Source: an uncultured Synergistota bacterium (GTDB taxonomy: Bacteria; Synergistota; JAGHAJ01). Taken from it: a stretch of DNA of 64,000 nucleotides. Made by a program: the position numbers and the translations under genes. Numbering within the stretch: the first letter of the stretch is position 1; each line of letters begins with the position of its first letter. The notes under the pieces were generated by a model. The model saw only the letters and a program-made list of their open reading frames with translations. It was not told where the DNA came from and ran no database searches. Positions 8,557 through 30,058 of the stretch are shown here, piece after piece. The stretch is taken from assembly GCA_964559865.1 (NCBI GenBank), contig CAZLJD010000021.1, positions 57,999 to 121,998 on the forward strand, in the 5' to 3' direction.

Positions 8557-9151
8557 TTAACACATCTGCATGAACAACGCTCTTTTCCCTTGTAGCATCT
8601 ATCAAAACCACATTTCTATCCTTCTTCTCTGAAAGAGCATAATATCCGTCCATCAACCTCTGAAAGAACACCATGTCGTTTCGCTCCATTCTGTCTCTAC
8701 TGCGGGACTTTATCCTCTCAAACGCCACATCCACCGGAAGAGTCAACACGATCGTTAGATCTGGAATATATCTACCCACAGCCCATCTGTTCAGGAGGTC
8801 TATAAAATCCTTGTCTATTCCTCTACCGTCACCCTGATACACTAAGGTAGAATCTATGTATCTTTCGCACACTACTACATATCCCTTCTCCACATAAGGT
8901 GAAATAAGATCCTCAACATGTTGCACCCTATCTGCCATGTATAAAAGAAGCTCCGCCTTGCTATTAATAGACACATTGCCTTCTAACAAAATTCTTCTTA
9001 ACTCTTTGCCAAGGGGGGTATCCCCAGGCTCAAAAGTGCATACAACTGGTAAACCTCTTCCCTTCAATGCCTCTGTTAACAACCTCACATGCGTGGTTTT
9101 CCCGCCACCATCTATACCTTCTAATGTTATAAGTTTACCCCTTTTTCTCAT
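8510..9151 (-). CDS. tmk: Thymidylate kinase
   Basis: 213 aa. P-loop ITLEGIDGGGKTT and DRY-like lid motifs. Confidence 0.9.
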   Translation of the reverse strand: MRKRGKLITLEGIDGGGKTTHVRLLTEALKGRGLPVVCTFEPGDTPLGKELRRILLEGNVSINSKAELLLYMADRVQHVEDLISPYVEKGYVVVCERYIDSTLVYQGDGRGIDKDFIDLLNRWAVGRYIPDLTIVLTLPVDVAFERIKSRSRDRMERNDMVFFQRLMDGYYALSEKKDRNVVLIDATREKSVVHADVLSVVLSYLEKVGYLEG

Positions 9152-9397
9152 GATACTATTTTACCACACATACCAAAAAACACGAGCCAAAATCAGTACC
9201 CACAAACACACACTCTAAGAGATGTACAAACTGCACACAACTAAAGAACAAAACCACAGGAACAAGTGGAGAAGAAGCGAAGCTGGTCCAACACAGAACA
9301 AGCACCACTATGCAGGTGTTACAGGCACACTGGGAATACTATCTACAACCGCCAAGAAATGCTGCAAACCACACCTGTACCAAAAAGCATATTCTTA

Positions 9398-9426
9398 TTG
9401 ACAAGAAAGAACAGGTCTAATATCAT
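9398..9426 (+). promoter_or_regulatory. Sigma-70-like promoter for the sensor kinase gene
   Basis: TTGACA (9398-9403), then a 17-nt spacer, then TATCAT (9421-9426). The ATG at 9460 is preceded by an AAGGAAGG SD. Confidence 0.4.
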
Positions 9427-9459
9427 ATTATCAGCAACTCGTATAAAGGAAGGTAGTTT

Positions 9460-10911
9460 ATGGTTTCATATTTCGAGGAAAAGAAACTCTGTGAACTCAC
9501 CGACAACAATCTGGGAACATGTGTATTAGAGGATAAGGAAATTGTCTTTGCAAACGGCGTTTTAGCAGAAAGGCTCGGTTATTCGGTTAGTGAGCTAATA
9601 CACAAGGAAATTGGGATTTTCGTTCACCCTCAAGACAGAGAAAGACTTTACGAAGCATTACAAGTCGTATCCAGTAGCGCAGAGAGTATGTTTATCCCAC
9701 TAAGAATCCTGTCAAAAAATAGCGGCATATTCTGTATGGCACTTACACTGAACAACTTGATGTTCAGGGGAAAACCCGCCACACTGGTAAACTTTCTGGA
9801 CATAGAGACACTAAAAGAGATACAAAAAGAGGCAGAAAACGAACTATTTAAACTTCAGAAAGCCATATTTGAGGCAATACCTCATGCCATCATGGGACTG
9901 GAGAACAGAAAGGTCATATTTGCAAACAACGCCGTTTACGACATCTTTGGCTGGCATCCCGAAGAGCTAATAGGCAAAAGCATGAGACTACTCTTTCACA
10001 GCGATAGAGAGTATGAAGAAGAAGGCAAAAAGTTTTACTCGGTGCTAAAAAAGTTAAAGACCCATCGGATAGAATTCACATACAGGAGGAAAGACGGAAC
10101 AGATGTAACCTGCCTAACGAGTGTATCACGCATAGGAGATGATCCAGATAACATGAGAATAGTGGCCACTCACACAGACATAACAAGAATGAAGAAGATA
10201 CAGCATGAATGTGATGTGCTTCACGACCAACTCTGTATGTACACAGACCACCTGCACGATATGGTTGAAAGGGAACGCTCAATGATAGCACAGGAGATGC
10301 ACGACAAAATAGGGCAAACACTAACCATCTTAAAAATGAACCTATTCAAACTGAAAAAGGATATTGCTCCCCAAGAAGAAGACATCAGAAAAAGATTTGA
10401 ACTTACTCTCTCACTCGTAGACAGTACAATAAGGTCCATGCGCAACCTTGCTGCATATCTAAGGCCTATCTTGTTAGATGATCTTGGTCTCATCGCAGCA
10501 GTAGAGTGGTTACTTGAGGAGTTTCAATACGCAACAGGTTTGGATGTAGAATTAAATTACCATCCAATCTTCAAACATGTAGAATTCAGCAAGAAGTTCT
10601 CAACGAACCTTTACAGGATCCTCCAAGAAAGCCTAACAAACATAGTAAGGCACGCCAACGCCACAAAAGTTTGGGTGAAAATGCACTATAAAAGAGGTAC
10701 TGTCATGCTTACTGTAAGAGACAACGGCTGTGGTATCAACACCAAGAAGATTGACAAGTCGAGAACCTTCGGAATAATAGGCATGAAAGAAAGGGCTAAC
10801 CTACTTGGAGGAAAGCTATGGGTAAGAAATTGGCATGCATCTGCACCGGGGATAGGTGGAGCTATTGTCGTGGCCCACATTCCTATATCGAAGGAAAAGG
10901 AAAGGCAATGA
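9460..10911 (+). CDS. PAS-domain sensor histidine kinase (HisKA_3/NarX-like class)
   Basis: 483 aa, soluble with no TM segments. It has two PAS-like repeats. The phospho-acceptor region (HDKIGQTLTILKMNL) and the HATPase_c C-terminus (VRDNGCGI...GIIGMKERA) are recognisable. It is translationally coupled to the downstream regulator. Confidence 0.8.
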   Translation: MVSYFEEKKLCELTDNNLGTCVLEDKEIVFANGVLAERLGYSVSELIHKEIGIFVHPQDRERLYEALQVVSSSAESMFIPLRILSKNSGIFCMALTLNNLMFRGKPATLVNFLDIETLKEIQKEAENELFKLQKAIFEAIPHAIMGLENRKVIFANNAVYDIFGWHPEELIGKSMRLLFHSDREYEEEGKKFYSVLKKLKTHRIEFTYRRKDGTDVTCLTSVSRIGDDPDNMRIVATHTDITRMKKIQHECDVLHDQLCMYTDHLHDMVERERSMIAQEMHDKIGQTLTILKMNLFKLKKDIAPQEEDIRKRFELTLSLVDSTIRSMRNLAAYLRPILLDDLGLIAAVEWLLEEFQYATGLDVELNYHPIFKHVEFSKKFSTNLYRILQESLTNIVRHANATKVWVKMHYKRGTVMLTVRDNGCGINTKKIDKSRTFGIIGMKERANLLGGKLWVRNWHASAPGIGGAIVVAHIPISKEKERQ

Positions 10912-11540
10912 CAAAAGTCCTAATTGCAGATGATCATCCAGTTGTTAGGGTAGGTTTAAGGCAAATACTTGCAGAAGACCCTCAAATAGAAGTAACAGGT
11001 GAAGCCTCCAATTTTCAAGATGTAATCAGCTTCGTGTGGAAAAACGAGTGCGACATAGTGCTATTAGACCTCTCAATGCCTGGAATGGACGGCCTTGACG
11101 CCGTAAAAGAACTAAAACAGATGAAACCAGAACTAAAGATCTTAATCGTCAGTATATACCCAGAAGAACAGTACGCTGTCAGGGCCTTAAAAGCAGGAGC
11201 ATCCGGTTACTTGACAAAAGAGAGTGCACCGGAAGAGCTAACCAAAGCAGTCAGAAAAGTTGCAACAGGTGGTAAATACATAAGCCCAACACTTGCGGAC
11301 ATCCTTGCAACCAAGATAAGCAAAGAAAGAGAAGGACCTCTACACGAATCCTTATCTGACAGGGAATACGAGGTAATGATCATGCTCGCAAAGGGGAAAA
11401 CGCTCAAAGAGATAGCAAGAGAACTCTCCCTGAGTATCAAAACTGTAAGCACCTACAGATCACGCATCCTTAGGAAGATGGGCTTCAAAAACAATGCACA
11501 AATAACTTTGTACGCAGTAAAAAACGGCTTAATACTGTGA
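10908..11540 (+). CDS. NarL/FixJ-family response regulator (REC plus LuxR HTH)
   Basis: Start at ATG 10908, giving MTKVLIADDHPVVRVGL. The ATGA overlaps the kinase stop. The C-terminal HTH reads LSDREYEVMIMLAKGKTLKEIARELSLSIKTVSTYRSRILRKM. Confidence 0.85.
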   Translation: MTKVLIADDHPVVRVGLRQILAEDPQIEVTGEASNFQDVISFVWKNECDIVLLDLSMPGMDGLDAVKELKQMKPELKILIVSIYPEEQYAVRALKAGASGYLTKESAPEELTKAVRKVATGGKYISPTLADILATKISKEREGPLHESLSDREYEVMIMLAKGKTLKEIARELSLSIKTVSTYRSRILRKMGFKNNAQITLYAVKNGLIL

Positions 11541-11556
11541 ATATTTTCACCTCTAC

Positions 11557-11584
11557 GAATGTGTAAGATAATTCCTACACATTC
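11557..11584. promoter_or_regulatory. Perfect 9-bp inverted repeat (GAATGTGTA-N10-TACACATTC) between the response regulator and the GRE operon. Candidate operator and/or weak terminator.
   Basis: Seen directly in the sequence. TACACAT resembles NarL-type heptamer half-sites. Confidence 0.35.
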
Positions 11585-11690
11585 TGTTTAAGTCTGCCTA
11601 CAAAGTTATCAGATATGAGAGGATACCATCTTAACTTTCCCTATGCTATGCTTAAACTCGGTTGAATTTTCTAAAAAAGGAGGATTTGGC

Positions 11691-14159
11691 ATGGCAGAAT
11701 CTACGAAAATAAGAGAAAGAGAGATAAAAGGGAAACCTTCTACCGACAGGGTTGCAAAGAGGTACAAAGAGCTTCTAACAAAGGAACCACGGATAGACTC
11801 TCAAAGGGCTGTGCTGTTCACAGAGTACATGAAAGAGCACTGGAGAGAGCACAAGTACATAAGGGCAGGAGGGGCACTAAAATATGTACTATCAAACCTC
11901 ACCCCAAAAATCTGGGATGGAGAATTGCTTGTCGGGAATGTATCCAGATACTTCAAAGGGACACAGGTATATCCAGAGTACGAAACATGGATGCTGGAGG
12001 GATTCAAAAAGATAAAGAGAGAAGAAGAAAGATACATAAAGGGCACTTTACAAGAAAGAGAAGGAGACAGACTTGGCGTCTACTTAATATCCCAAGAGGA
12101 TAAGGAAAAGATACTCGAAACTGCAAGATTTTGGGAAGGAAAGGACTGGAGAACATTAGCAGAAAAATATCTGAAAGATACAAGAGATGACTTTGAAACC
12201 GTAGAAAAGTGGATGGAGCAGCTTGTCTTTCTGAGGTTTATGTTTGATGTCCCTGAAGGAAGGGTAATCGTTGACTATCAAAAAATAATAGACGAAGGCA
12301 TTGAAGGTCTTTTTAACAGAATAGATTATAAGTTATCCACACTTACAGACCTTGGAAACAGAGAAAACTTCGAAAAATACGCATTTTACAAGGGAACAAG
12401 GATGGCACTTGAGGGAATAGTAAATTATGCCAACAACTATGCAAAAGAAGCAGAGAGGCTTGCAGAAACGTGCACAGATCCAAAGAGAAAAGAAGAGCTT
12501 CTGGAAATAGCAAAAATATGCAACAAAGTCCCGCTAAAACCATCAGAAACATTCAAAGAAGCTATACAGGCATTCTGGTTTACGCAAGTGTGCCTATTCA
12601 TAGAGCTCAACGGTAGAGGCATATCTCCCGGCAGGTTCGACCAATACATGTATAGAACCTTCAAGTCTGATATAGAAACCGGAAGGATAACCGAAAAAGA
12701 GGTTTTGGAATTACTCGAGCTTATGCGCATAAAATGTTCAGAGATAACGAGAGCACATGCCACATTTACGGAATCATATCTGGGCGGTAGCGTATACCAG
12801 AACTTAACAATAGGAGGAGTGGCCAAGTACGGGATACCATGCGAAAATGAGCTTTCTCTCCTCGTACTGCAAGCAGGTATAAACGTGAGAACATGGCAAC
12901 CAACTATCTCTATACGCTGGCGCGAGGATATGAGCCATGCATTCAAGATCAAAGCAGCAGAATGCATAAAAGCTGGAAGCGGATATCCTGCTTTATTCAA
13001 CGACATACTTGGAACAGAACGATTCAGGATAGTTACGGGTGCAACTCTTGAAGACGCAAGGGACTGGGCTCCATGCGGATGTGTAGATATGCAGATATGT
13101 GGAAAACGGATGCCAATGTATGCAATCCCTCACACCAACAACCTCAAAATTCTCGAACTCGTTCTGAATAAGGGAGTAAACCCAGTTACAGATGACAAAC
13201 TGATAGATGTAAAAATAGATCCAAAGAATGCAACGTTTGATGAAATTGTCGAAGAGTACAAACGCATAATGGACATAGTAGTCAAAACCGAAGAGGAGTA
13301 CTGGAACAGCATAATGGTAATCCACAACGATATAGGGCTTGTTCATCTATTCATGTCTGCTCTCCTCGATGACTGCATAGAAAAAGCCAAAGCAGCCTGC
13401 GAAGGAGGTTGCAGGTACAATGACCCAGCCTATGTAATTACATGTGGTATGGTAAATGTAGCAAACAGTCTTGCAGCTATAAAGAAGTGTATATTCGAAG
13501 AAAAATCCATGACAATGGAAGAACTACTTCAAGCACTCAAAGACAACTTCAAAGGACACGAGCTATTGAGGAAAAAGTTACTTGAAGCACCTAAGTATGG
13601 AAACGACGACGATTATGTGGACAAAATTCTTGCAGAGCTGTATGAAGCATGGTCCAAATCGGCACAGAAAACAAAGAACTGGGTGGGCGAACCGTGGAGG
13701 CCAAGCACACTATCGGTAACAACGCAGGTGTTACACGGAAAGGCATGTGGAGCTACACCTGATGGTAGGTTAGCAGGAGACTATCTCGCAGATGGTGCAA
13801 TATCTGCATTCCCGGGAACGGATTTGAATGGCCCAACGAGTCTCATAAAGTCAGCTACTAAGGTAGACGCAAGCGATCTACAGGCCACCCTCTTCAACAT
13901 GAAATTCAACCCTGCAGCAATAGAAGGACCTGTAGGGACAGAAAAGTTCATCAAGCTAAACGATGTATATATCAAACTCGGGGGGTACCACATTCAACAC
14001 AACATAGTTGACAGAAACATGCTCATAGACGCACAGAAACACCCAGAAAGGTATCCGGATCTCATGGTAAGAGTTGCTGGATTTACCGCAAGATTTATAG
14101 ACTTAGGCCCAGATGTTCAAAGACAGATAATAGAGAGGACCGAATACGAAGGACTCTAA
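11691..14159 (+). CDS. Glycyl radical enzyme, PFL2/glycerol-dehydratase-like family. Substrate unknown.
   Basis: 822 aa from ATG 11691 (AAGGAGGA SD). N-terminus is typical of PFL2-type GREs. The C-terminal glycyl radical motif is RVAGFTARFIDLGPDVQRQIIERTEY. No adjacent CC pair of PFL proper is present; there is a single catalytic-type Cys loop (WAPCGCVDMQICG). Confidence 0.85.
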   Translation: MAESTKIREREIKGKPSTDRVAKRYKELLTKEPRIDSQRAVLFTEYMKEHWREHKYIRAGGALKYVLSNLTPKIWDGELLVGNVSRYFKGTQVYPEYETWMLEGFKKIKREEERYIKGTLQEREGDRLGVYLISQEDKEKILETARFWEGKDWRTLAEKYLKDTRDDFETVEKWMEQLVFLRFMFDVPEGRVIVDYQKIIDEGIEGLFNRIDYKLSTLTDLGNRENFEKYAFYKGTRMALEGIVNYANNYAKEAERLAETCTDPKRKEELLEIAKICNKVPLKPSETFKEAIQAFWFTQVCLFIELNGRGISPGRFDQYMYRTFKSDIETGRITEKEVLELLELMRIKCSEITRAHATFTESYLGGSVYQNLTIGGVAKYGIPCENELSLLVLQAGINVRTWQPTISIRWREDMSHAFKIKAAECIKAGSGYPALFNDILGTERFRIVTGATLEDARDWAPCGCVDMQICGKRMPMYAIPHTNNLKILELVLNKGVNPVTDDKLIDVKIDPKNATFDEIVEEYKRIMDIVVKTEEEYWNSIMVIHNDIGLVHLFMSALLDDCIEKAKAACEGGCRYNDPAYVITCGMVNVANSLAAIKKCIFEEKSMTMEELLQALKDNFKGHELLRKKLLEAPKYGNDDDYVDKILAELYEAWSKSAQKTKNWVGEPWRPSTLSVTTQVLHGKACGATPDGRLAGDYLADGAISAFPGTDLNGPTSLIKSATKVDASDLQATLFNMKFNPAAIEGPVGTEKFIKLNDVYIKLGGYHIQHNIVDRNMLIDAQKHPERYPDLMVRVAGFTARFIDLGPDVQRQIIERTEYEGL

Positions 14160-14234
14160 AGTGGAAGGGGGTGGAAGCAAAAAAAGAGACAACAATAAAT
14201 CACACTAAAAACATTAAAGAAAGGAGGAAAAAGT

Positions 14235-14774
14235 ATGTCAGAAAATGGAAACGGGAGAAAGGTCATAGTGATCGACCCTGAAAGGTGCACAGGGTGTCAC
14301 GGTTGTGAAATGGCATGTTCCATGAAACACTTCAATCTATGCGGAACTGCTTATTCAAGGATAAGAATCCACGAGTTTAGGGATATTAACACGTTTATAC
14401 CCGTAATGTGTCAAGGATGCGAGGATGCCCCATGCATAAAGGTGTGTCCAATGAATGCCAGAATAAGGATCGAAAATGGTGCAGTAGTTACTGATGAGGA
14501 CAAGTGCATAGGCTGTAGAGCATGTATATACGCCTGTCCATTCGGCGCTCCTCAGATCAATCCCGAAAACGGGAAAACAATGACATGCGATCTCTGTGAA
14601 GACGATCCCCTCGGTCCCTGGTGCGTAAGAGCCTGCACCATGCAGGGAGCACTCAAATTTGTAGATGAAAAGGATGCAGCAAGAGCCAAAGGTAGAGAAT
14701 GGGCCAAGACCATAAAAGAAGATGTTGCACCTCCTGTCAAGGAGGAAGAAGAGTTTGGCTTTAGCTTTGGCTAA
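14235..14774 (+). CDS. Polyferredoxin electron-transfer subunit (AorA-like, multiple [4Fe-4S] clusters)
   Basis: 179 aa with four CxxCxxCxxxCP-type motifs. Lies immediately upstream of the AOR gene. Confidence 0.8.
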
Positions 14775-14821
14775 ACAGATTATACCTAAATCAGTCTATT
14801 CAAGAAAGGAGGAAAGAAAAC

Positions 14822-16825
14822 ATGAAAGTTGACGGATGGACAGGGTTCAGGGTAAGAGTAGACCTGACAAATAGAAAATACGAAGTAGAACCTTTATCAA
14901 TAGACTATTACAGAAAGTGGATGGGAGGCAGGGGGATAAACTCCGATGTCTTGTACCATGAAACTTACAGGGGCATGGATCCATTTTCACCAGATAATCC
15001 TCTATGCTTCGCTGCAGGACCTCTATCCGGCACATTTGCTCCCCTATCCGGAAGGACAACCGTATCAGCACGCTCCCCGATGACATGTTCTCCAACCCTG
15101 GGCACAAATGTGCACGGACACGGTGATTCAAACATGGGTGGAGCATTCGGACCCATGATGAGGTATGCCGGATTCGATCAGATCATAGTCAAAGGAAAAG
15201 CCGATAAACCGGTGTATCTGTTTATACACGACGGTAAGGTAGAATTCAAAGATGCCTCTCACCTGTGGGGGCTCGGAGTCGTAAAAGCCACGAAAAGGAT
15301 CCTTGAAGAGCTGCACGATCCAGATATAAAGGTTACCATTATTGGACCAGCAGGTGAAAATCTTGTGAGGTTTGCCTGTGTAACGAGTTCCTATGGTTCC
15401 ACTGCAGGAAGGACGGGAATGGGCGCAGTGATGGGATCGAAAAACCTTAAAGCGATAGCCGTCAAAGGGACAAGACCCATAACGATAGCAAGACCAAAGG
15501 AGTTTGCCGAAGCGTGTTGGAAACTTAGAGAAAAAATACATAATTCCCCATCTGCCATAAGGCGTATGATAGAAGGTTCAATGGACCTATTTGATGCCGG
15601 CAATGCCATAGGTATAAATGCACACAAAAACTGTTCTACAGGCTACATGGAAGGTATAGAAGAGATATACGGCGGTCTAAAGTGGGCAAAAGAGTACCTT
15701 TTCAGAAGGAAGGCATGTTGGTCGTGCCCAGTGGCATGTGGTAGAACCACATATATAAGGGAAGGAAAGTGGGCAGGGACATTCTGTCTGGGCCCAGAGA
15801 TGGAAACCGTTTGTAACCTTGGTCCAAGAATTGACTCCCGTGATGTCGCAGGTGTAAATGCTCTTGCCTGCTTCGTGTCCGAACTCGGTATGGACAGTAT
15901 TTCAGCCGGAGCAGCACTTTCATGGACTATGGAAGCCTTCGAAAAAGGTTACATAACGGAAAAAGACACTGGAGGCATAAGACTTGAGTGGGGAGACATA
16001 GAAACATCTATGAAAGTTCTAAAAATGATCGCATACAGAGAGGGCTTTGGGGACCTGTTGGCAGAGGGAAATATAAGAGTTGCTGAAAAGCTAAACCGCG
16101 GTATGGACATAGTCCCACATTGTAGAGGTCTTGAGCACATAAGCGTTGACCCGAGAATAGCAATGGGATTCAGCCTTGGCTATGCAATGTCAACAAGAGG
16201 TTCTGACCACCTGAAAAACTACTCCTGTCTGGAGTTCCCCGGCGCTGCAAGGAGCAGAGCAGATCAAGTGGAAGAAGCCCTTGGTCCAGAGCTCGCAAAG
16301 AAGTTCTGGGAGGACTTCCCGAAAGAGATGACAGAATTAGATACAAAACCAGCCCTATGTACATGGTCTGAAAGAAACAAGTGCGTTGCAGATCTCGTAG
16401 GTACATGCTGTCAGGCTATAGGTTCTTGGGGTGGTGCTGGAGATTGGAAAGTATATGCAGAACTGTTCAAACTCGCCACCGGACAAGACATGAGCGACGA
16501 TGAAATATTCAAGGTAGCTGAACGCGTAATTGCGATAGAGAGAGCTGAGTGGCTCAGAGAAGGCAGTGCAAGACAAGACGACACCCATACTGACAGATAC
16601 TTTGACGAACCTGTTCAGGGTGGGCCACACAACGGACTAAAAATAGATAGAAAGAAATGGGCATGGGCACAGAGCGAATACTACAGACTGCATGGATGGG
16701 ACAATGATGGCTTCATAACACCCGAAAAAGCAAAGGAACTCGGCATAGAGGAAATTATACCTGACATGGAAGAAGGCAAAAAAATATACATGGAATACAT
16801 GAAAAAACAAGCAGAGAAATCCTAA
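14822..16825 (+). CDS. Tungsten-containing aldehyde:ferredoxin oxidoreductase family catalytic subunit (AorB-like)
   Basis: 667 aa. The N-terminal MKVDGWTGFRVRVDLTNRKYEVEPLSIDYYRKWMGGRGINSDVLY matches the AOR_N domain. Central and C-terminal AOR domains are present. Confidence 0.85.
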   Translation: MKVDGWTGFRVRVDLTNRKYEVEPLSIDYYRKWMGGRGINSDVLYHETYRGMDPFSPDNPLCFAAGPLSGTFAPLSGRTTVSARSPMTCSPTLGTNVHGHGDSNMGGAFGPMMRYAGFDQIIVKGKADKPVYLFIHDGKVEFKDASHLWGLGVVKATKRILEELHDPDIKVTIIGPAGENLVRFACVTSSYGSTAGRTGMGAVMGSKNLKAIAVKGTRPITIARPKEFAEACWKLREKIHNSPSAIRRMIEGSMDLFDAGNAIGINAHKNCSTGYMEGIEEIYGGLKWAKEYLFRRKACWSCPVACGRTTYIREGKWAGTFCLGPEMETVCNLGPRIDSRDVAGVNALACFVSELGMDSISAGAALSWTMEAFEKGYITEKDTGGIRLEWGDIETSMKVLKMIAYREGFGDLLAEGNIRVAEKLNRGMDIVPHCRGLEHISVDPRIAMGFSLGYAMSTRGSDHLKNYSCLEFPGAARSRADQVEEALGPELAKKFWEDFPKEMTELDTKPALCTWSERNKCVADLVGTCCQAIGSWGGAGDWKVYAELFKLATGQDMSDDEIFKVAERVIAIERAEWLREGSARQDDTHTDRYFDEPVQGGPHNGLKIDRKKWAWAQSEYYRLHGWDNDGFITPEKAKELGIEEIIPDMEEGKKIYMEYMKKQAEKS

Positions 16826-16843
16826 AAGGGTTGAGGAGAAACC

Positions 16844-18154
16844 ATGAAAGTAGTCATTGTGGGAAACGGCATAGCTGGAAACGAGGTTGCTTATAACATC
16901 AGGAGTAAGGGCAAAGATACCGAAATAGTAATAATATCTGCAGAGGGAAGTCCTGAGTATGATCCCTGTTCACTCCCCTACTTCGTCTCTGGTGATGTAA
17001 AGAAAGAGGCCGTGTTTAGAAAGAAGATGGAAGATTATCAAAAAGCCGGTATTCAACTCATCCTGAACGATAAAGCTATTTCCATCAATGCAGAAGCAAA
17101 GACGATAGAAACCGAAAGCGGAAGAACCATAAACTACGACAAACTCGTTCTCGCCCACGGGGGGGATCTATTCATCCCCCCTCTCCCCGGTGTAGAAAAA
17201 CAAGGCACGTTCAGTTGCAAAAAACTATCGGAAGCAGAGAGATTATTCAATCACAAAGGAAAAGCTGCAGTGGTAATTGGTTCAGGTGCAATAGGCATAG
17301 AAGTAGCCGAAGCCCTGAAAAAGAGAAACTTTGAGGTATACATCGTGGAATTACTCGAGTGGATACTCCCTACACTCTGTTGTGAACCTACAGCAAGGAG
17401 ATTGGAAGAAAAGCTCAGAGAAAACGGTATACAAGTGTACACAGGAGAAAAAGTCACCTCTATCGAGGGAAGCAACTCCGTAAACGGGGTAAAGACAGAC
17501 AAAAGGTTTATACCGTGTGACACAGTAGTTATAGCAACCGGAGTTGTCCCCGGAAAGCAGCTTGCACAGAGTGCAGGAATAGAAGTCAATCGGGGTATAA
17601 AAACCAACGAATTTATGGAAACAAACATCGACAGCATCTACGCATGCGGCGATTGTGTGGAAACATTTGACACCTGCACCGGCGAAGGCTGTGTATACCA
17701 GCTCAAGCACAACGCAATAGACCAAGCACAAATTGTAGCTGAGAACATCGCCGGCAGAAAGACAAAGTATGGTGGCGCATATGCATTCGCAAGAATACAC
17801 TTCTTCGATACACACGCCGTATCTTTTGGTAAAACACTAAGAGGAGCAACACGCATTTGCTCACTTGACGATCTCGACATTATTGAACAAAGCTACAACG
17901 GCGAGTACCTAAGACTGATTCTTAAAGATGGCAAGGTCATCGGTGGACAAGCTATAGGGGAAATTGCAAACTTCTCGGGGTTGTTTCTGTCAGCTATGCG
18001 CAGAAAAGATGATTTGAGCGAAATACGAAGAAGGTGGGAATTAATATCCAGGTTTGACTCACCGTACCCATGGAACTACAGAGAAATGGGACGCATTATG
18101 GGTCTGACATCAAACGGTTGGGAAAGTATCAATAAAATAATGACCAGTTTATAA
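16844..18154 (+). CDS. FAD/NAD(P)-binding pyridine nucleotide-disulfide oxidoreductase (AorC-like third subunit)
   Basis: 436 aa with two Rossmann motifs (VVIVGNGIAGNEVA and AVVIGSGAIGIEVAEAL). Position directly after the AOR gene matches the AorABC architecture. Confidence 0.75.
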   Translation: MKVVIVGNGIAGNEVAYNIRSKGKDTEIVIISAEGSPEYDPCSLPYFVSGDVKKEAVFRKKMEDYQKAGIQLILNDKAISINAEAKTIETESGRTINYDKLVLAHGGDLFIPPLPGVEKQGTFSCKKLSEAERLFNHKGKAAVVIGSGAIGIEVAEALKKRNFEVYIVELLEWILPTLCCEPTARRLEEKLRENGIQVYTGEKVTSIEGSNSVNGVKTDKRFIPCDTVVIATGVVPGKQLAQSAGIEVNRGIKTNEFMETNIDSIYACGDCVETFDTCTGEGCVYQLKHNAIDQAQIVAENIAGRKTKYGGAYAFARIHFFDTHAVSFGKTLRGATRICSLDDLDIIEQSYNGEYLRLILKDGKVIGGQAIGEIANFSGLFLSAMRRKDDLSEIRRRWELISRFDSPYPWNYREMGRIMGLTSNGWESINKIMTSL

Positions 18155-18178
18155 AAACGCAGAAAGGAGGTAAACAAA

Positions 18179-18784
18179 ATGTCACAAAATAACCATCCCT
18201 TTGCAAACCCAGGACCTGCAGGCCTAATGGTACTTGCATTCTACTTAGGCGCACTGTGGCCTGTGCTCACGGGAATGGCACATCACGAACTCGCATCGGT
18301 GTTAATAGCACTCGGACTAGCAGGTGGATTAGTCCAAATGACAGCAGGGATCATAGAGCTGAGAAATGGTTCAATAATGGGAGGAAATATCCTTCTCGCA
18401 TTTAGTGCATTTATGTGGCTTGGATGCATAGAATGGCTGGGGAAGATGCTTGGTTTCATCCCCCACAATACAGCAGCAGTGGACGGATGGGTCTTTACGA
18501 TCATGGGCATACTCATGTGTGGATTTACCATTGGACACTTACTCACGCCAAAGGTTATGTTCTGGTTCATGATATTTACAGATATATTCTTCCTCTCAGC
18601 AGGCATATTTTTCCTCACAGGGTCAAAACTGCTCCTTCTCATTGCTGGGTGGGTCTTACCACTCGTCGTGGTGACCATCATATGGTCAGTGCTTGGCACG
18701 GTACTCAACAGTGTATTTGGCAAAACCATTATTCCACTGGGGAAACCTTACCGCACCCCAACAAGTAAAGCAAGAAAGGAGTGA
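18179..18784 (+). CDS. satP: GPR1/FUN34/YaaH (SatP) family acetate/succinate channel
   Basis: 201 aa with six predicted TM helices and the family signature NPGPAGL near the N-terminus. Confidence 0.8.
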   Translation: MSQNNHPFANPGPAGLMVLAFYLGALWPVLTGMAHHELASVLIALGLAGGLVQMTAGIIELRNGSIMGGNILLAFSAFMWLGCIEWLGKMLGFIPHNTAAVDGWVFTIMGILMCGFTIGHLLTPKVMFWFMIFTDIFFLSAGIFFLTGSKLLLLIAGWVLPLVVVTIIWSVLGTVLNSVFGKTIIPLGKPYRTPTSKARKE

Positions 18785-18789
18785 AACTT

Positions 18790-19881
18790 ATGGGAAAAGG
18801 CATAAGTAAGGCATTGGAAGAATGGCAAAAGAAGCCATTTGGAAGAGTTATCACCGAAGAAGAGCTGAGAAAGAGATGTCATCAAGCATGGCCATATAAC
18901 TACTTCGACCCAGGCAAACCAGTTGACCCAGAAGTAGTAGATGAACTCTTAAAAGGGGTAATTGACATCCACGTGCATGGTGCACCCCTGGGAAGCTGGC
19001 TACCAGGCAGACCAACTATGGTAGAAACATCAATCGAAGCAAGTGAAGCCGGAATGAAGGCACTGGTATTCAAGGACCATAACACCATGACAAATAACTG
19101 CGCAGAAATCATACAAGAATTCCTAAACAGAATGGCAAAAGAAAAGGAAAAAGAAGGTGAAACCTTCACACCAGTGGAAGTATATGGAGGTATAGTCCTA
19201 AACTACACGGTCGGGGGGTTAAACCCAAGAGCAGTAGAAGTCGCATTGGGGTACGGAAGATGTAAAGAAGTATGGTTACCATCCTTGGACGCTATGCACC
19301 AAAAACAGGCACAGGGCGTGGAGAACTGGAAAGACTACATATGCGTGACAAAAGGATTAATAGGGGACTCCGAAGAGCCTGTGGACGAACTCAAAAAGAT
19401 ACTTGACATAATGGCAGACTACAACAATAACAATAAAGGCGATAGAGTATCGCTTTCACTATGCCATGTGTCCAACGAAGAAAAATTTGCAATACTAAAA
19501 TACATAAGGAAAAAAGGCATGAAAATAGATGCAATATTCGACCATGTAACCCAAGAAATGACCATACTTACACCTGAGGAGGCAAAAGAAGCCATAGACC
19601 TCGGCGGATACTTGGAGTTCGCTGAGTGTTCCTGTGTTCCATGGCCAGGAATGTTCGATTGGGTCATTGCTGTCAAATACTCATTCAACCTCATAAAAGA
19701 GCTGCTAAAGGAGAAAGGACCAGACCACTTAGTACTGATTACAGATGCTGGGCAGCCAGGTAACAAACCTGTTCCCGGTTGGAAGAACTTCATAAGAACC
19801 CTATTAGCTCAAGGAGTTAGTGAGCGTGAAATAGAGATAATGGCAAAAGAGGTTCCAGCAAAGCTGATATATGGAGAGTAA
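18790..19881 (+). CDS. TIM-barrel metal-dependent amidohydrolase-superfamily protein (HxH motif). Specific function unknown.
   Basis: About 363 aa from ATG 18790 (AAGGAG SD overlapping the satP stop). Motifs DIHVHGAP, later His residues and ITDAG are consistent with the amidohydrolase fold. Confidence 0.6.
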   Translation: MGKGISKALEEWQKKPFGRVITEEELRKRCHQAWPYNYFDPGKPVDPEVVDELLKGVIDIHVHGAPLGSWLPGRPTMVETSIEASEAGMKALVFKDHNTMTNNCAEIIQEFLNRMAKEKEKEGETFTPVEVYGGIVLNYTVGGLNPRAVEVALGYGRCKEVWLPSLDAMHQKQAQGVENWKDYICVTKGLIGDSEEPVDELKKILDIMADYNNNNKGDRVSLSLCHVSNEEKFAILKYIRKKGMKIDAIFDHVTQEMTILTPEEAKEAIDLGGYLEFAECSCVPWPGMFDWVIAVKYSFNLIKELLKEKGPDHLVLITDAGQPGNKPVPGWKNFIRTLLAQGVSEREIEIMAKEVPAKLIYGE

Positions 19882-19890
19882 AAACAAAAG

Positions 19891-20856
19891 GTGCTGTGTC
19901 CAATAAGCATGACACAGCACCTCCAAACAAGCTTTCCACGGGAGGAAACGCCTTTGAGCATAAAAGGAACAATCACTGAAATAAAAAGATTTGCAACTCA
20001 CGACGGGCCCGGCATAAGAACAACCATCTTTCTAAAGGGATGCCCACTGAAGTGCAAGTGGTGCTCCAACCCAGAAACCCAAAAAAAAGACACAGAGCTC
20101 TATTTTATCCGAAGAAGGTGTTCGAATTACGGAAACTGCATTGAAGTCTGCCCCACTAATGCAATAAGTATGGATAAAGAAAACAAAATAAACAGGGAAA
20201 AGTGTATCTTGTGTTTCGAATGCGTAAAGTCATGTCCAAGCAATGCATTTCAAAAGGTAGGCTGGGAAATCACCGTAGAAGAGGCATTTAAAGAGATCAT
20301 GAAGGACTACGACTTTTACGGAGAAGAAGGCGGATTAACGCTGAGCGGAGGGGAACCCTTATATCAACCAGATTTTACTATATCACTGTTGAAAATGTGT
20401 CACGATAGCGGCATATCCACGGTGCTTGACACTTCAGGTTTTGCACCACCAAATATAGTTAAAGAAGCAGTCAAATACACTACCATGGTGCTATTAGATC
20501 TAAAACACATGGACCCTTATATGCATGAAATAGGAACAGGCATAAGCAATACCGTTATACTAAACAATGCTCCTATATTTTCCAAACACACAAATGTAAG
20601 GATATCCTTTCCCCTCATACCCGGATACAATGACAGCGAAGAGAACATAAAAGCCATGGTAAAATTTACAATTTCCTTGGGTATAGAATACATTGATATA
20701 AATCCACTCCACATACTTGGATCGGACAAGTACAGAGCCCTTGATTTAGAGGTTCCTTATGAAGAGTTTAGAAAGCCATCTAAAGGAGAGATAGATAGAG
20801 CGGTATCCATCATAGAAGAAGCAGGGCTAAAGACTACCATTGGTAGAATGCTATAA
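19891..20856 (+). CDS. Glycyl-radical enzyme activating enzyme (radical SAM with two extra ferredoxin-like clusters)
   Basis: Radical SAM motif CPLKCKWC after the ATHDGPGIRTTIFLKGC glycyl-radical-activase signature. Two further clusters follow: CSNYGNCIEVCP and CILCFECVKSCP. The start may be ATG 19909 instead of GTG 19891. Confidence 0.85.
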   Translation: MLCPISMTQHLQTSFPREETPLSIKGTITEIKRFATHDGPGIRTTIFLKGCPLKCKWCSNPETQKKDTELYFIRRRCSNYGNCIEVCPTNAISMDKENKINREKCILCFECVKSCPSNAFQKVGWEITVEEAFKEIMKDYDFYGEEGGLTLSGGEPLYQPDFTISLLKMCHDSGISTVLDTSGFAPPNIVKEAVKYTTMVLLDLKHMDPYMHEIGTGISNTVILNNAPIFSKHTNVRISFPLIPGYNDSEENIKAMVKFTISLGIEYIDINPLHILGSDKYRALDLEVPYEEFRKPSKGEIDRAVSIIEEAGLKTTIGRML

Positions 20857-20878
20857 TTCTATGAAAGGAGGCACAGCT

Positions 20879-22168
20879 ATGGTAGATTTAAGCGTTAACT
20901 TTCTCGGATTTGAACTAAAGAATCCGGTAGGCGTTACATCTTGCGACTTTGGAGGAGAACACAGACTAACAAAGAGGTGTGCTGAACAAGGAATAGGATG
21001 GATAGTCGGAAAGACCGTTCACAAAATCGACGGACCACACCGCTGGCCTCGTCCATACTTCTATTCACTTAGGCGGTTCGGTCCAGACTTAAGAGATGCG
21101 TGGGTATGCAGCCAGATGTTCCACAATATGCCCTATGATGAGTGGTTCGAAAAGGAACTACCAGCTATATTAAAGGTATGCGAAGACTACGATTGTCTAT
21201 TTATAGGCTCGTGCTCTGGCATAGGAGACGATCCAAATACATGGATCCCTATACTCAAAGATATGGAAAACGCAGGTGTAAAAGTTGTAGAGCTCGACAC
21301 AGGGGGACCCCATGCCACATTTGGCGCAGAAGTCTCACAAAAAGATGTTGGTGCCCCATTAGCTCTTGATCCAGAAAAAGCTTATAAGTTAACAAAGGCA
21401 TGCGTTGAAGCTGTCAACATACCCATAATATTCAAGATGACTCCCCAATGCGTTAACATGGCTGCAGTCGCACACGCAGTAGAAAGAGCTGGAGCAGCTG
21501 CAATCTCTGCAAACAACGCTTTTTACGGGTGCTGGATAGACCACGAAACAGGAACATTCTACGGCGTACCAGCATCTATGGGTGCACTCATAGGCAGATC
21601 ATGGCAGTCCGTATCACTTGCAAAAGTAATGGAAATAACAGCTACCGTGAAGATACCAGTTATAGGGATAGGGGGTATCTTTACATACGACGATGTAGCA
21701 AGATATTTAATGGCAGGTTGCAATGTAGCAGGATTGTGCTCATCCGTATATTCCAGAGGTGTAAAAGTCCTCAGTAAGGTAATATCCGAACTCGAAAAGT
21801 GGATGGAAAAGAAGGGATATTCCAACATCAAGGAGTTCCAGGGCAAAGTCGTAAAAGACTTCATGTACTTAAGAGACTGGAATAGAGAAAACCCCATGGC
21901 AGAAAAGACACCCATAATCCCAAAATTTTACAAAGAAAAGTGTACAAAGTGCGGAATTTGTATAGACCTATGCCCTTATGGTGCCTTAACGCTTGATAAG
22001 GAAACGATGAGCGTACCGGAAGTAAATGAAGACTACTGCATGGGTTGTGGATGGTGTCTTGGACACTGCCCAACCAAGGCAATAGAGATGATACACAAGG
22101 CATCCGGTGAAGTCGTATGGAACGGTTACGGGGTAATCAAAGACTGGGTTGGAAAATTAGAAGGTTAG
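20879..22168 (+). CDS. Dihydroorotate/dihydropyrimidine dehydrogenase-like TIM-barrel flavoprotein with C-terminal 2x[4Fe-4S] domain (PreA-like)
   Basis: ATG 20879 with AAAGGAGG SD. N-terminus MVDLSVNFLGFELKNPVG is the DHOD/DPD family 1 signature. C-terminus has CTKCGICIDLCP and CMGCGWCLGHCP. Confidence 0.75.
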   Translation: MVDLSVNFLGFELKNPVGVTSCDFGGEHRLTKRCAEQGIGWIVGKTVHKIDGPHRWPRPYFYSLRRFGPDLRDAWVCSQMFHNMPYDEWFEKELPAILKVCEDYDCLFIGSCSGIGDDPNTWIPILKDMENAGVKVVELDTGGPHATFGAEVSQKDVGAPLALDPEKAYKLTKACVEAVNIPIIFKMTPQCVNMAAVAHAVERAGAAAISANNAFYGCWIDHETGTFYGVPASMGALIGRSWQSVSLAKVMEITATVKIPVIGIGGIFTYDDVARYLMAGCNVAGLCSSVYSRGVKVLSKVISELEKWMEKKGYSNIKEFQGKVVKDFMYLRDWNRENPMAEKTPIIPKFYKEKCTKCGICIDLCPYGALTLDKETMSVPEVNEDYCMGCGWCLGHCPTKAIEMIHKASGEVVWNGYGVIKDWVGKLEG

Positions 22169-22234
22169 TCGTATAATCGTGAGGTGGGGGTGCTTAATTG
22201 TGTACCCCCACAAACCAAGAGGAGATGATCTTAC

Positions 22235-23113
22235 ATGTTTACATCACCGGCAGATGTAAGGGCAAAGTTTGCACAGCGCTACTACATAGTGGACAAAGGT
22301 ACTGCTACAGTAGTCTACATAGCAGTGAAACTACAAAAACCCATCCTCGTCGAGGGGCCAGCCGGTGTGGGGAAAACAGACCTTGCAAGGGTGCTTGCCG
22401 ATGCCACTAACTCAAGGTTAATCAGACTTCAGTGTTATGAAGGTATAGATTCAACCAGTGCTCTGTACGACTGGAACTACCAAAAGCAACTCTTGAGAAT
22501 ATACGCAGACAGAGAGCAAAAAAAAAGCTGGAAAGATGTAAAACAAACCATCTACTCAGAGGAATTCTTACTCCCAAGACCACTCTTAATGGCTATAACA
22601 TCAAAAGAACAAACGGTTTTACTCATAGATGAAATAGACAAAAGCGATGAAGAATTTGAAGCCTTTCTCTTGGAATTCCTATCCGACTATCAGGTAAGCA
22701 TTCCAGAAATAGGGACTGTTAAAGCAAACAATATACCTATAGTGGTACTGACCAGCAACAATGCAAGGGATTTTGGAGATGCACTAAAAAGGAGGTGCAT
22801 ACACCTGTACCTCGACTATCCCCCATTGGAAAGAGAGATGGAGATCGTCAAGCTAAAGGTCCCTGAGATACAAGACCAACTACTCAGAGAGATCACCCAC
22901 TTCGTACAAAAGCTAAGAGAAATGAAACTCAAAAAACCACCAAGTATCGCAGAGACAATAGAATGGGCAAAAACCCTACTGGAGCTGGATGTAGAAAGTT
23001 TGACAGACGACATAGTGAAAGCTACCTCTGGTGTCATACTAAAGTATAGGAGTGATGTGGAAGCGCTGAATTCAATAGATACAAACAGTCTCCTTTCTTC
23101 CATAACCCACTGA
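22235..23113 (+). CDS. MoxR/CoxD-like AAA+ ATPase (AAA_5)
   Basis: 292 aa. Walker A EGPAGVGKTDLARVLA, Walker B LLIDEIDK. Followed by a vWA protein as in coxD-coxE maturation pairs. Confidence 0.8.
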   Translation: MFTSPADVRAKFAQRYYIVDKGTATVVYIAVKLQKPILVEGPAGVGKTDLARVLADATNSRLIRLQCYEGIDSTSALYDWNYQKQLLRIYADREQKKSWKDVKQTIYSEEFLLPRPLLMAITSKEQTVLLIDEIDKSDEEFEAFLLEFLSDYQVSIPEIGTVKANNIPIVVLTSNNARDFGDALKRRCIHLYLDYPPLEREMEIVKLKVPEIQDQLLREITHFVQKLREMKLKKPPSIAETIEWAKTLLELDVESLTDDIVKATSGVILKYRSDVEALNSIDTNSLLSSITH

Positions 23114-23130
23114 GGAGAAGTCAAGAGGTC

Positions 23131-23700: not shown

Positions 23701-23712
23701 GGAGAAATATCC

Positions 23713-24612: not shown

Positions 24613-24637
24613 CTACAAGAGGATGGGAGGAGTTAAC

Positions 24638-25372: not shown

Positions 25373-25429
25373 ACTTTGCGACAATAACTGTAAATATATA
25401 CAACTTTACAAAAAAGCAAGAAGTAATAA

Positions 25430-25450
25430 TTTGTTGAAATATTCAACAAA
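25430..25450. promoter_or_regulatory. Perfect palindrome TTTGTTGAA-ATA-TTCAACAAA just upstream of a strong promoter. Candidate operator.
   Basis: Seen directly in the sequence. It shares TTGTTGAAAT with the imperfect palindrome at 32994-33019. Confidence 0.4.
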
Positions 25451-25456
25451 CTTTCC

Positions 25457-25485
25457 TTGACAATGACGGTGAAACCCTATAAAAT
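25457..25485 (+). promoter_or_regulatory. Sigma-70-like promoter
   Basis: TTGACA (25457-25462), then 17 nt, then TAAAAT (25480-25485). A strong SD (AGAAGGAGGT) precedes ATG 25522. Confidence 0.45.
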
Positions 25486-25521
25486 ATTGCTATAATAAAA
25501 CCCCAGAAGGAGGTATGCTAC

Positions 25522-26259: not shown

Positions 26260-26274
26260 ATTAAGATAGTTCAA

Positions 26275-28660: not shown

Positions 28661-28672
28661 CTCGCTCCCCCC

Positions 28673-29134: not shown

Positions 29135-29146
29135 GGCATATTCCCC

Positions 29147-30037: not shown

Positions 30038-30058
30038 TACATTACACCCCCTAACTCT

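Follow-up and report, generated by a model that had tools for sequence, protein, structure and literature searches.

What does a glycyl radical enzyme (GRE) do in an operon that also encodes a tungsten aldehyde oxidoreductase (AOR), a carboxylate channel, an amidohydrolase-like protein and an iron-sulfur flavoprotein? The question is raised by eight genes at positions 11691-22168 of a 64,000-nucleotide stretch of DNA from an uncultured Synergistota bacterium (contig CAZLJD010000021.1), which as a whole is called the window below. We find that the locus is a real, widely conserved operon around a GRE without an assigned function, and that the pathway encoded by it is probably an undescribed anaerobic one, with a small organic acid as its substrate or product. 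The conserved core consists of four genes, encoding the GRE, its activase, a PreA-like protein carrying FMN and two [4Fe-4S] clusters, and a DUF6282 protein; the AorABC-type AOR and a SatP-like channel form a mobile accessory cassette. An open reading frame (ORF) listing together with profile searches placed ten same-direction genes between 9460 and 22168:

9460-10911, plus strand: sensor histidine kinase with two PAS domains, HisKA_3 and HATPase_c (Pfam); no transmembrane region noted
10908-11540, plus strand: NarL/LuxR-type response regulator, REC and GerE domains (Pfam, NCBIfam)
11691-14159, plus strand: GRE of 822 aa; PFL-like domain PF02901 (577 bits) and Gly_radical domain PF01228 (94 bits)
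14235-14774, plus strand: AorA-like four-cluster polyferredoxin, the AOR electron-transfer subunit; Fer4_11 and related domains
14822-16825, plus strand: AorB-like tungstopterin AOR of 667 aa; AFOR_N (252 bits) and AFOR_C (329 bits)
16844-18154, plus strand: AorC-like FAD/NAD(P) oxidoreductase subunit; Pyr_redox_2 (210 bits)
18179-18784, plus strand: putative, divergent carboxylate channel of the AceTr/SatP family (GPR1/FUN34/YaaH); Pfam 28.3 bits against a cut-off of 25
18790-19881, plus strand: DUF6282 protein (Pfam), a TIM-barrel metalloenzyme of the amidohydrolase superfamily
19909-20856, plus strand: GRE activase, a radical SAM enzyme carrying two auxiliary 4Fe-4S clusters; Radical_SAM, and TIGR02494 with 315 bits (cut-off 174)
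20879-22168, plus strand: PreA-like FMN protein of the fold shared by dihydroorotate dehydrogenase (DHOD) and dihydropyrimidine dehydrogenase (DPD), with a C-terminal 2x[4Fe-4S] ferredoxin domain; DHO_dh (74 bits) and Fer4

By their coordinates, neighbouring genes of the operon are 5-75 nt apart, and the contig's own gene calls match the starts of these genes. The GRE start at 11691 is correct, with a database protein (P0001) of 822 aa being 100% identical. The original prediction, which had been made from the letters alone, described eight tightly spaced co-directional genes behind a two-component system, named their families and put the activase 5.7 kb downstream of its GRE. All of this agrees with the ORF listing and with the Pfam and NCBIfam profile matches, and the distance from the GRE stop to the activase start measures 5.75 kb.

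A four-gene core and an accessory aldehyde oxidoreductase cassette

Synteny was assessed by mapping the window proteins with tblastn onto 25 genome loci and further contigs. The whole set (GRE, ferredoxin, AOR, FAD subunit, SatP-like channel, DUF6282, activase and PreA-like protein) recurs in the same orientation in unrelated genomes, namely a Bacillota metagenome-assembled genome (MAG; L003), a Pelotomaculum MAG (L004), Thermacetogeniaceae (L019), Desulfotomaculaceae (L026), a 1.4-Mb JGI contig (L027) and the cultured syntroph Pelotomaculum schinkii (L035). Part of the set is present in Desulfomonilia (L005) and Coatesbacteria (L037), on contigs that are cut. The exact gene set is therefore syntenic in other genomes, the co-occurrence that the original prediction had asked to see, and its view of the eight genes as one functional unit is sustained by the gene order of relatives. 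Orthologous loci without the AOR cassette occur in Syntrophobacter (L006), gut Firmicutes (L007), Syntrophomonas (L008 and L018), Eubacteriales (L009), Eggerthellaceae (L011, L013 and L034) and Enterocloster aldenensis (L032), and at L029. Most of these keep DUF6282, activase, PreA-like protein and GRE together. Across the independent match lists for the GRE, DUF6282 and the PreA-like protein, more than 40 longest-contig sizes coincide, and such equal sizes are consistent with co-location of the three genes.

We class the AOR and SatP-like genes as accessory because the AOR cassette is missing from about half of the orthologous loci. The cassette does nevertheless belong to the GRE unit, since its AOR is of a dedicated subtype (70-73% identical across phyla, and 35% identical to a second AOR in the same window) and since in a Bacteroidales locus (L038) a three-subunit enzyme of the Mo-hydroxylase family fills the AOR slot, between the GRE and the DUF6282-activase-PreA-like genes. 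It is found between GRE and activase in at least nine genomes, from Bacillota, Thermodesulfobacteriota and Coatesbacteria, and has two insertion points, after the GRE in the window and L027 and after DUF6282 in other lineages. The AOR and SatP genes had been predicted as an integral module; they are part of the unit where they are present, but about half of the loci do without them.

In the cassette itself, the best PDB match of the ferredoxin is 8c0z_C (AorA, 114 bits), the flavoprotein matches 8c0z_E (AorC) with 144 bits over residues 1-376, and the tungsten subunit matches 8c0z_A (AorB) with 260 bits. With all three chains matched, and with the gene order Fe-S, W-pterin, FAD shared with the AorABC of Aromatoleum aromaticum (PDB 8C0Z), the AorABC-type label of the original prediction is supported at the level of architecture, for what is predicted to be a tungsten enzyme. 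In contrast to the A. aromaticum enzyme, the tungsten subunit of the operon is nearer to the Pyrococcus AOR (PDB 1aor, 360 versus 260 bits) and about 50 residues longer, and the module lies within a GRE operon, together with the gene of a SatP-like channel. AorABC of Aromatoleum oxidises aldehydes, including arylacetaldehydes, to acids (PMC9295118). In relatives, a MoaD/ThiS-like gene accompanies the AOR module. The SatP-like gene always accompanies the AOR genes in the cluster; the protein carries an N-terminal NPGPAGL motif (NPxPxGL-type) and scores 50 bits with NCBIfam PRK10659 (SatP equivalog cut-off 297) and 41.5 with AceTr_1 (cut-off 50). Its homologs in L027 and L035 have no match in the precomputed Pfam record.

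Variation around the core was seen in several lineages. Two Syntrophomonas MAGs (L008 and L018) share the same arrangement of PucR-type regulator, activase, PreA-like protein and GRE, and differ in their divergent neighbours. In L018 (881-5644) the divergent side holds DUF6282, a GntP-like permease, an AroM/racemase-like gene and an AEC carrier, whereas in L008 (3437-5829) an MmgE/PrpD-family protein stands in the place of DUF6282, again with an AEC carrier, and DUF6282 was not found within 10 kb upstream. One Eggerthellaceae locus (L034, 10001-17997) is a decaying copy of the core, in which an insertion sequence (DDE_Tnp_1) separates DUF6282 from the activase and the GRE is broken into ORFs of 630 and 175 aa.

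The glycyl radical enzyme and its two partner proteins

The GRE carries both Pfam domains of its superfamily, an RVAGF motif with Gly797, a cysteine (Cys464) aligned to Cys433 of glycerol dehydratase (GDH), and a cognate activase. A word-indexed protein search gave 1287 matches at E <= 1e-50, of which the best 120 are 56-100% identical, all uncharacterised and automatically named pyruvate formate-lyase (PFL), indoleacetate decarboxylase (IAD) or HPAD. Among the groups they come from are Thermoanaerobacterales, Thermacetogeniaceae, Deltaproteobacteria, Bacteroidales, Coatesbacteria, Nezhaarchaeota and Hecatellales. Scanned exhaustively with HMMER, 1.84 billion representatives yielded 1959 GRE representatives at E <= 1e-30. 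The clade of the operon GRE is a single 50%-identity cluster (P0024) and is sharply bounded, its members being 55-100% identical and the next representative 43% identical.

Placed against the curated NCBIfam models, the GRE exceeds no family cut-off. Its best model, above all eliminase models, is IAD (NF033718; 672 bits, cut-off 1100), and the other scores are 574 for PFL2-3 (cut-off 678), 496 for HPAD (NF033715; 1150), 480-486 for HpsG/HpfG (1000), 476 for HypD (1100), 437 for CutC (1050), and 439 and 145 for the PFL models PRK09983 and TIGR01255 (1109 and 994). By the profile placement proposed with the original prediction, the enzyme has no characterised ortholog. Among solved structures the scores are 463 bits for GDH, 447 for HpyG, 437 for propanediol dehydratase, 422 for CutC, 400 for AAD and 335 for HPAD. 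The four nearest full-length representatives outside the clade all score best with the IAD model. A genuine IAD representative (P0366, 1188 bits and so above the cut-off) is 37% identical to the operon GRE and matches it with 540 bits, by a small margin over eliminase-like representatives (535 bits). Because P0366 outscores any solved eliminase, IAD is the closest characterised relative.

The active site was mapped with a HMMER alignment to GDH (1r8w) and with 146 sequences aligned in MAFFT, of which about 140 belong to the clade. The diol-binding residues of GDH (His164, His281/Ser282 and Asp447) correspond in the HMMER alignment to Arg191, Arg309/Gly310 and Ala, and with these residues not conserved a diol-dehydratase identity is not supported. 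Identity as a C-S lyase is likewise not supported, the GRE scoring below the HpsG/HpfG cut-offs and, of the IslA triad R189/Q193/R678, matching only the first Arg (Arg191/Asp195/Leu674, by spacing from the catalytic Cys only). In the window and in all ~140 clade members the Cys loop reads W-A-P-C-G-C-V-D, with Asp466 in place of the Glu of the Cys-x-Glu (CXE) motif. All members also keep DVPEGR, NGRG(I/M)SPGRFDQY and STLSVTTQV, and these signatures hold without exception between 100% and 55% identity and are absent in the next relatives, at <=39% identity in the MAFFT alignment. Two arginines, Arg191 and Arg309, are invariant in the clade; Arg191 sits in DVPEGR, of which the EGR part is common to IAD and there contains Arg226.

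The CXE Glu is kept in all GRE eliminases and isomerases (PMC13450708), and IAD and HPAD retain it as well (PMC13450708, PMC13232127). Active-site residues of IAD are Arg226 (essential), Glu502, Phe401, Leu616, His514 and Phe517 (PMC13232127). In an approximate alignment made via an IAD representative, Arg226 corresponds to Arg191, Phe401 to Tyr369, Leu616 to Ile583, Glu502 to Asp466, His514 to Ala478, Phe517 to His481 and Trp392 to Thr360, and a Gly of IAD is replaced by Arg309. The pocket is thus predicted to be IAD-like in scaffold, more polar and more cationic, and a pocket of this kind suggests as substrate a carboxylate with further polar or anionic groups rather than a plain arylacetate. 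In an unrelated GRE of Youngiibacter fragilis 232.1 (L024, 5108-7501), which is 33% identical, the second residue behind the catalytic Cys is likewise Asp (G-C-L-D), and Cys-x-Asp may have arisen more than once in GREs.

For the DUF6282 protein, no Pfam match beyond DUF6282, no NCBIfam match and no PDB sequence match was found. Its AlphaFold2 (AF2) model (pLDDT 90.6) has eight strands, and the invariant residues D59, H61, H63, K95, H226, H252 and D319 form the pattern of a metal centre. Both features agree with the amidohydrolase superfamily, a (beta/alpha)8 barrel defined by an HxH motif behind strand 1, a His behind each of strands 5 and 6 and an Asp behind strand 8. The label 'TIM-barrel amidohydrolase' given earlier is therefore right at superfamily level. 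The protein is nearer to dipeptidases and to phosphotriesterase (PTE)-like lactonases than to cyclic amidohydrolases, and belongs to a separate family from the amidohydrolases of the PydB/enamidase type (11-16% identity); membership among dihydropyrimidinases, hydantoinases, dihydroorotases or enamidases was rejected on both sequence and closest fold. Its chemistry is most likely hydrolysis of an amide, lactam or lactone, with hydratase or decarboxylase activity, as in LigJ and LigW, a less likely alternative. Elsewhere, DUF6282 heads operons of its own: in Sedimentibacter hydroxybenzoicus DSM 7310 (L033, 9171-20770) it does so without a GRE, and in L009 (412-6256) it is divergent from the GRE. 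Its partners in these two operons are a VorB-type 2-oxoacid:ferredoxin oxidoreductase, a D-2-hydroxyacid dehydrogenase, phosphate butyryltransferase (PTB) and butyrate kinases (BUK), joined in L033 by a GntR regulator and a TRAP transporter.

The PreA-like protein has the expected fold features, with DHO_dh and Fer4 domains, the FMN-contacting Lys residues kept at the positions of DPD K574 and K709, and eight invariant Cys in two CxxCxxCxxxC motifs for two [4Fe-4S] clusters. Its best NCBIfam match is PreA, at 178 bits against a cut-off of 335, and it matches DPD and DHOD structures with only ~70 bits. The pig DPD loop E-L-N668-L-S-C671-P-H aligns to E-L-D-T-G-G-P-H, and since the catalytic Cys is Gly and Asn668 is Asp the protein is not a DPD or DHOD, and its identity as a pyrimidine or orotate reductase was rejected. 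These replacements run through the whole family, all members having ELD(T/I)GGPH, whereas outgroups at 30-33% identity keep the canonical N-x-S-C-P; the position of pig DPD Asn609 is not conserved. The family is tight (44-84% identity, followed by a drop to ~30%) and is a distinct family of Fe-S flavoenzymes co-evolving with the GRE clade. No PreT-like partner stands beside it, and electron input is presumably of the ferredoxin type. The original prediction had taken this gene, with the amidohydrolase, to point to a (dihydro)N-heterocycle or amide as substrate; for a ring of pyrimidine type the argument is weak with the DPD/DHOD catalytic residues absent.

Candidate pathways

Clues to the substrate come from the genes beside the core in relatives. 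Transporters in this position are all of carboxylate type: OFA-family (oxalate/formate-lactate) carriers of the major facilitator superfamily (MFS), which score 281-285 bits with the L-lactate carrier model SfMCT (cut-off 320), GntP-like and AEC carriers in Syntrophomonas, TRAP in Sedimentibacter and the SatP-like channel in the AOR form. Enzymes converting 2-oxo acids to acids adjoin the cluster or lie within it in several loci, among them the DUF6282 operons of L009 and L033 and the L038 operon described below. In E. aldenensis (L032), PaaK, IorA (above cut-off), IorB and PaaK lie directly upstream. A locus with a GRE 58% identical to that of the window (L031) is surrounded by genes for Amidohydro_2, RidA, a CoA ligase, B12 mutases and a thiolase, with an NCS1 permease. 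The Bacteroidales operon (L038, GCA_050013795.1, 31-15561) begins with a fused IOR-like oxidoreductase, an aminotransferase, the GRE and an ADP-forming acyl-CoA synthetase, and continues with Mo-hydroxylase FAD, 2Fe-2S and Mo subunits, DUF6282, activase and PreA-like protein. This operon ties the GRE to amino-acid-derived acids.

The reading that we prefer, with a probability of roughly 0.35, is an inducible pathway in which a small, polar carboxylic acid is metabolised anaerobically, built on the four-enzyme radical module and with the GRE acting as a decarboxylase. The activase would install the glycyl radical on the GRE, whose pocket of Arg191, Arg309, His481 and Asp466, in the IAD/HPAD lineage, would bind the carboxylate substrate. 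The reaction would most likely be a radical decarboxylation (Kolbe-type or by hydrogen-atom transfer), and less likely a related C-X cleavage. DUF6282 would, in a metal-dependent manner, open or cleave a lactam, lactone or amide bond of the substrate or product, and the FMN/2x[4Fe-4S] protein would carry out a ferredoxin-linked reduction or oxidation of a C=C next to a carbonyl. Where present, the AorABC-type add-on would interconvert aldehyde and acid, either feeding the GRE its acid substrate or oxidising an aldehyde intermediate, with electrons travelling through the polyferredoxin and the FAD subunit. Transport of the carboxylate across the membrane would fall to the SatP-like channel or, in other lineages, to an OFA-family MFS carrier. 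From genes and residues we infer which type of reaction takes place, in which order the steps follow and what sort of compound the substrate is: decarboxylation is favoured because of the IAD lineage, the carboxylate-binding arginines and the acid-forming neighbours, and a carboxylate because of the two invariant Arg and the monocarboxylate-type carriers nearby.

Several points weigh against this reading. The best matches among solved structures are eliminases (GDH, HpyG, propanediol dehydratase and CutC), and the pocket is far more polar than the hydrophobic one of IAD, so that a plain arylacetate is not a candidate. Cys-x-Asp is without studied precedent, which makes even the reaction class uncertain. 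DUF6282 and the flavoprotein are given only generic roles, an AOR with a SatP-like channel fits equally well an aldehyde product that is oxidised and excreted, and the archaeal loci (L015 and L036) hold GRE and activase only, on short contigs. We give even odds to the proposal that the GRE, DUF6282 and DHOD-fold proteins are an obligate three-enzyme system for a metabolite that would be new as a GRE substrate, in which an active site with Cys-x-Asp and two arginines would act by radical chemistry on a polar carboxylate that is non-aromatic or heterocyclic. The reaction might, for example, be a decarboxylation to a radical stabilised by a heteroatom or carbonyl, or a new ring or C-X cleavage. 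If true, the trio would be a new functional class of GRE across syntrophs, sulfate reducers, gut Bacillota, Eggerthellaceae and some archaea.

The original prediction offered another pathway, in which the GRE, as a 1,2-eliminase or lyase, acts on an X-C-C-OH compound derived from a ring-opened N-heterocycle or amide, and the aldehyde released is oxidised by the tungsten AOR to an acid that leaves through SatP. This would explain the cassette neatly, with its AOR and SatP-like genes always together; it agrees with the structural matches to eliminases (463, 447, 437 and 422 bits) and with the acidic residue kept at Cys+2, and hints of N-heterocycles are given by PucR-type regulators, the NCS1 permease of L031, the Mo hydroxylase of L038, and a nucleobase permease and an island of the xanthine dehydrogenase (XDH) family in the window. 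It is harder to square with the active site, where the GDH residues H164, H281/S282 and D447 have become Arg, Arg/Gly and Ala, the Glu of all known eliminases and isomerases (PMC13450708) is Asp, and only the first Arg of the C-S lyase Arg/Gln/Arg triad is matched, by spacing only. About half of the orthologous loci, moreover, have no aldehyde oxidoreductase, the PreA-like protein is devoid of the catalytic Cys and Asn of DPD and DHOD, and the Mo hydroxylase in the window is only 32% identical to that of L038. An aldehyde-releasing eliminase, for which the structural matches speak and against which the nearer IAD, the lost diol residues and the Glu-to-Asp change stand, is not clearly indicated, yet the scheme is a serious rival, only slightly less probable than the reading that we prefer. 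Separating the locus into two unrelated units, a GRE module and an independent AorABC/SatP cassette that serves aldehyde or acetate metabolism in general (in syntrophs, for instance, the ATP-independent activation of acetate or the detoxification of aldehydes), would account for the many orthologous loci without the cassette. AORs also come in multiple copies, with a second one in the window and six in T. phaeum (PMC6436200), and AOR-based acetate activation has been proposed for syntrophic acetate oxidisers (PMC6436200, PMC10579422). We consider this improbable in view of a cassette that sits between a GRE and its activase in at least nine genomes of three phyla, that has two insertion points and its own AOR subtype conserved at 70-73% across phyla, that is replaced in its slot by a Mo enzyme in L038, and that has no terminator or strong promoter between its genes and those of the GRE module.

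Least probable of all, with only a very slim chance of being correct, is a conventional reductive pyrimidine or orotate pathway (DPD/DHOD plus dihydropyrimidinase/dihydroorotase) with the GRE acting on a downstream product. The DHO_dh domain, PreA as best NCBIfam match and an AroM/hydantoin-racemase-like gene beside DUF6282 in L018 would fit it. The PreA score of 178 bits is far under the cut-off of 335, however, ELN-x-S-C-P has turned into ELD-T-G-G-P throughout the family while the Asn and Cys persist in more distant outgroups, the Asn609 position is not conserved, DUF6282 leans to dipeptidases and PTE-like lactonases instead of cyclic amidohydrolases, and neither a beta-ureidopropionase nor an aminotransferase is conserved in the cluster. 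Individual substrates were also considered and rejected, none fitting all partner genes: malonate or malonate semialdehyde, oxalate, tartrate or glycerate, sulfolactate, itaconate or glutaconate, imidazole-4-acetate, 2-oxindole-3-acetate or (2-aminophenyl)succinate, and the route from 6-hydroxynicotinate to 2-formylglutarate.

Among known systems, IAD and the GRE arylacetate decarboxylases (HPAD, PhdB/PAD and AAD) share with the operon GRE the glycyl and cysteinyl loops, the EGR motif (IAD Arg226), an adjacent activase and a monocarboxylate-type MFS carrier, and some loci of the operon GRE clade lie near the acid-forming enzymes IOR, PaaK and ACD. The operon GRE differs from IAD by Cys-x-Asp instead of Cys-x-Glu, Arg309 for Gly and polar residues for F517, H514 and W392; it has neither an HPAD-type small subunit nor the loop extensions of IAD (822 versus ~868 aa), and has two extra partner enzymes and often an AOR. 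With the GRE 1,2-eliminases (glycerol and propanediol dehydratase, CutC, IslA/IseG and HypD/HpyG) it shares the PFL2-type fold at ~30-35% identity and an acidic residue at Cys+2, and the AOR form encodes an aldehyde-oxidising enzyme; in contrast, the GDH substrate residues and two of the three sulfonate residues of C-S lyases are not conserved, microcompartment genes are absent from the operon, and a tungsten AorABC takes the place of a CoA-acylating aldehyde dehydrogenase or an alcohol dehydrogenase. Reductive N-heterocycle pathways are alike in logic. In Eubacterium barkeri, 6-hydroxynicotinate reductase and enamidase lead to the aldehyde 2-formylglutarate; there and in PydA/PydB of pyrimidine degradation a ferredoxin-type reductase is followed by ring opening by a member of the amidohydrolase superfamily, sometimes with a Mo hydroxylase before and an aldehyde after. 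The resemblance is without orthology, however: the DPD catalytic residues are absent from the operon protein, and no GRE is known from those pathways.

The original prediction knew of no described GRE pathway with such a gene content, and our literature search agrees: in the papers searched, including a GRE review of June 2026 (PMC13450708), neither the clade nor a Cys-x-Asp GRE is described, and none connects a GRE with a tungsten AOR, DUF6282 or a flavoprotein of the DHOD fold. The benzene 'Magic' cluster (PMC13101534) was set aside as unrelated, having GlcDEF/Hdr-like genes and no GRE, and no link to the GRE cluster could be made from AOR proteomics of Thermacetogenium (PMC6436200). GRE-based catabolic operons are already known, and what is new here is the catalytic signature and the set of partners, not a categorically new kind of system. 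GREs are the main route of anaerobes to chemically hard C-C, C-N, C-O and C-S cleavages, and each newly assigned clade has revealed new gut or environmental metabolism, as in the formation of trimethylamine, H2S, p-cresol and skatole. The present clade is broad, being found in syntrophic propionate and butyrate oxidisers, Thermoanaerobacterales, Desulfomonilia, Bacteroidales, Coatesbacteria, Eggerthellaceae and Enterocloster of chicken and human gut, and archaea. Assigning its substrate would annotate three protein families at once (the GRE clade, DUF6282 and the DHOD-fold Fe-S flavoprotein) and would explain the recruitment of a tungsten AorABC into a radical-enzyme operon. Two cultured carriers, P. 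schinkii (GCA_004369205.1, contig QFGA01000001.1) for the AOR form and E. aldenensis (GCA_052361165.1, contig JBIGIO010000009.1) for the MFS/PucR form, make the system experimentally tractable.

Regulators and surroundings of the operon

Regulators are swapped between lineages. The window, L027 and L006 have the pair of PAS/HisKA_3 kinase and NarL-type regulator; the GRE is preceded by a related PAS/HisKA_3 kinase in L027/L028 and in L006, where a 60% identical NarL-type regulator adjoins the cluster. Loci L002-L004, L019 and L035 have instead a GAF-PAS kinase with a sigma-54 regulator, and the gut and Syntrophomonas forms a divergent PucR-type regulator. The PAS-kinase/NarL pair had been called dedicated to the operon; it does precede the operon in the window, but it is not a fixed partner. 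Further features on either side are:

9398-9426, plus strand: sigma-70-like promoter candidate upstream of the kinase gene (TTGACA-17-TATCAT, 11/12 matches)
22235-25372, plus strand: possible accessory genes, encoding a MoxR-like AAA ATPase, a 189-aa protein of no family, VWA_CoxE, and MobB with an Fe-S domain
25522-26259, plus strand: 245-aa ORF with no Pfam or NCBIfam match, just before the terminator
26273-26302, plus strand: strong hairpin resembling an intrinsic terminator (13-bp stem, 8 GC pairs, T-run), at the end of the co-directional string

The promoter candidate is a consensus match only, from a scan that yielded no more sites than shuffled sequence. A scan of the plus strand over 9000-26500 found no strong terminator other than the one at 26273-26302. 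Whether the genes at 22235-25372 belong to the operon unit is uncertain. The MoxR/189-aa/VWA trio also lies beside the cluster in L019 and not in the other loci; the MobB/Fe-S protein is of the molybdo- or tungstopterin maturation type, and the MoxR, 189-aa, VWA_CoxE and MobB/Fe-S genes may together form a cofactor-maturation set for W or Mo enzymes.

Beside the operon, a catabolic island of N-heterocycle type occupies 26309-32959 (minus strand), 33384-34940 (plus), 37344-39122 (plus) and 39111-39881 (minus). It encodes the large, small and FAD subunits of an XDH-family Mo hydroxylase, a protein with two 'cyclase' (arylformamidase-like) domains, an AllG-like protein, an NCS2 nucleobase permease, the second AOR (35% identical to that of the operon) and XdhC. 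Its adjacency to the operon is not conserved in relatives. Equating its Mo hydroxylase with the enzyme of the L038 operon was rejected, the Mo subunit at only 32% identity not being orthologous. In archaeal L036, the genes upstream of the GRE include those of an amidohydrolase and a RibD_C reductase, and these two were considered as analogues of DUF6282 and the PreA-like protein; the resemblance is coincidental because the reductase passes the cut-off of an archaeal riboflavin-biosynthesis equivalog and is thus a housekeeping enzyme.

Rfam gave no match at the gathering threshold in the 64-kb window or in six related loci, and hence no riboswitch, a result that extends to the L20/L35/IF3 genes at ~2.4-3.5 kb. 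GC and AT skew flip sign exactly with the coding strand, for example at ~9.3 kb and ~26.3 kb.

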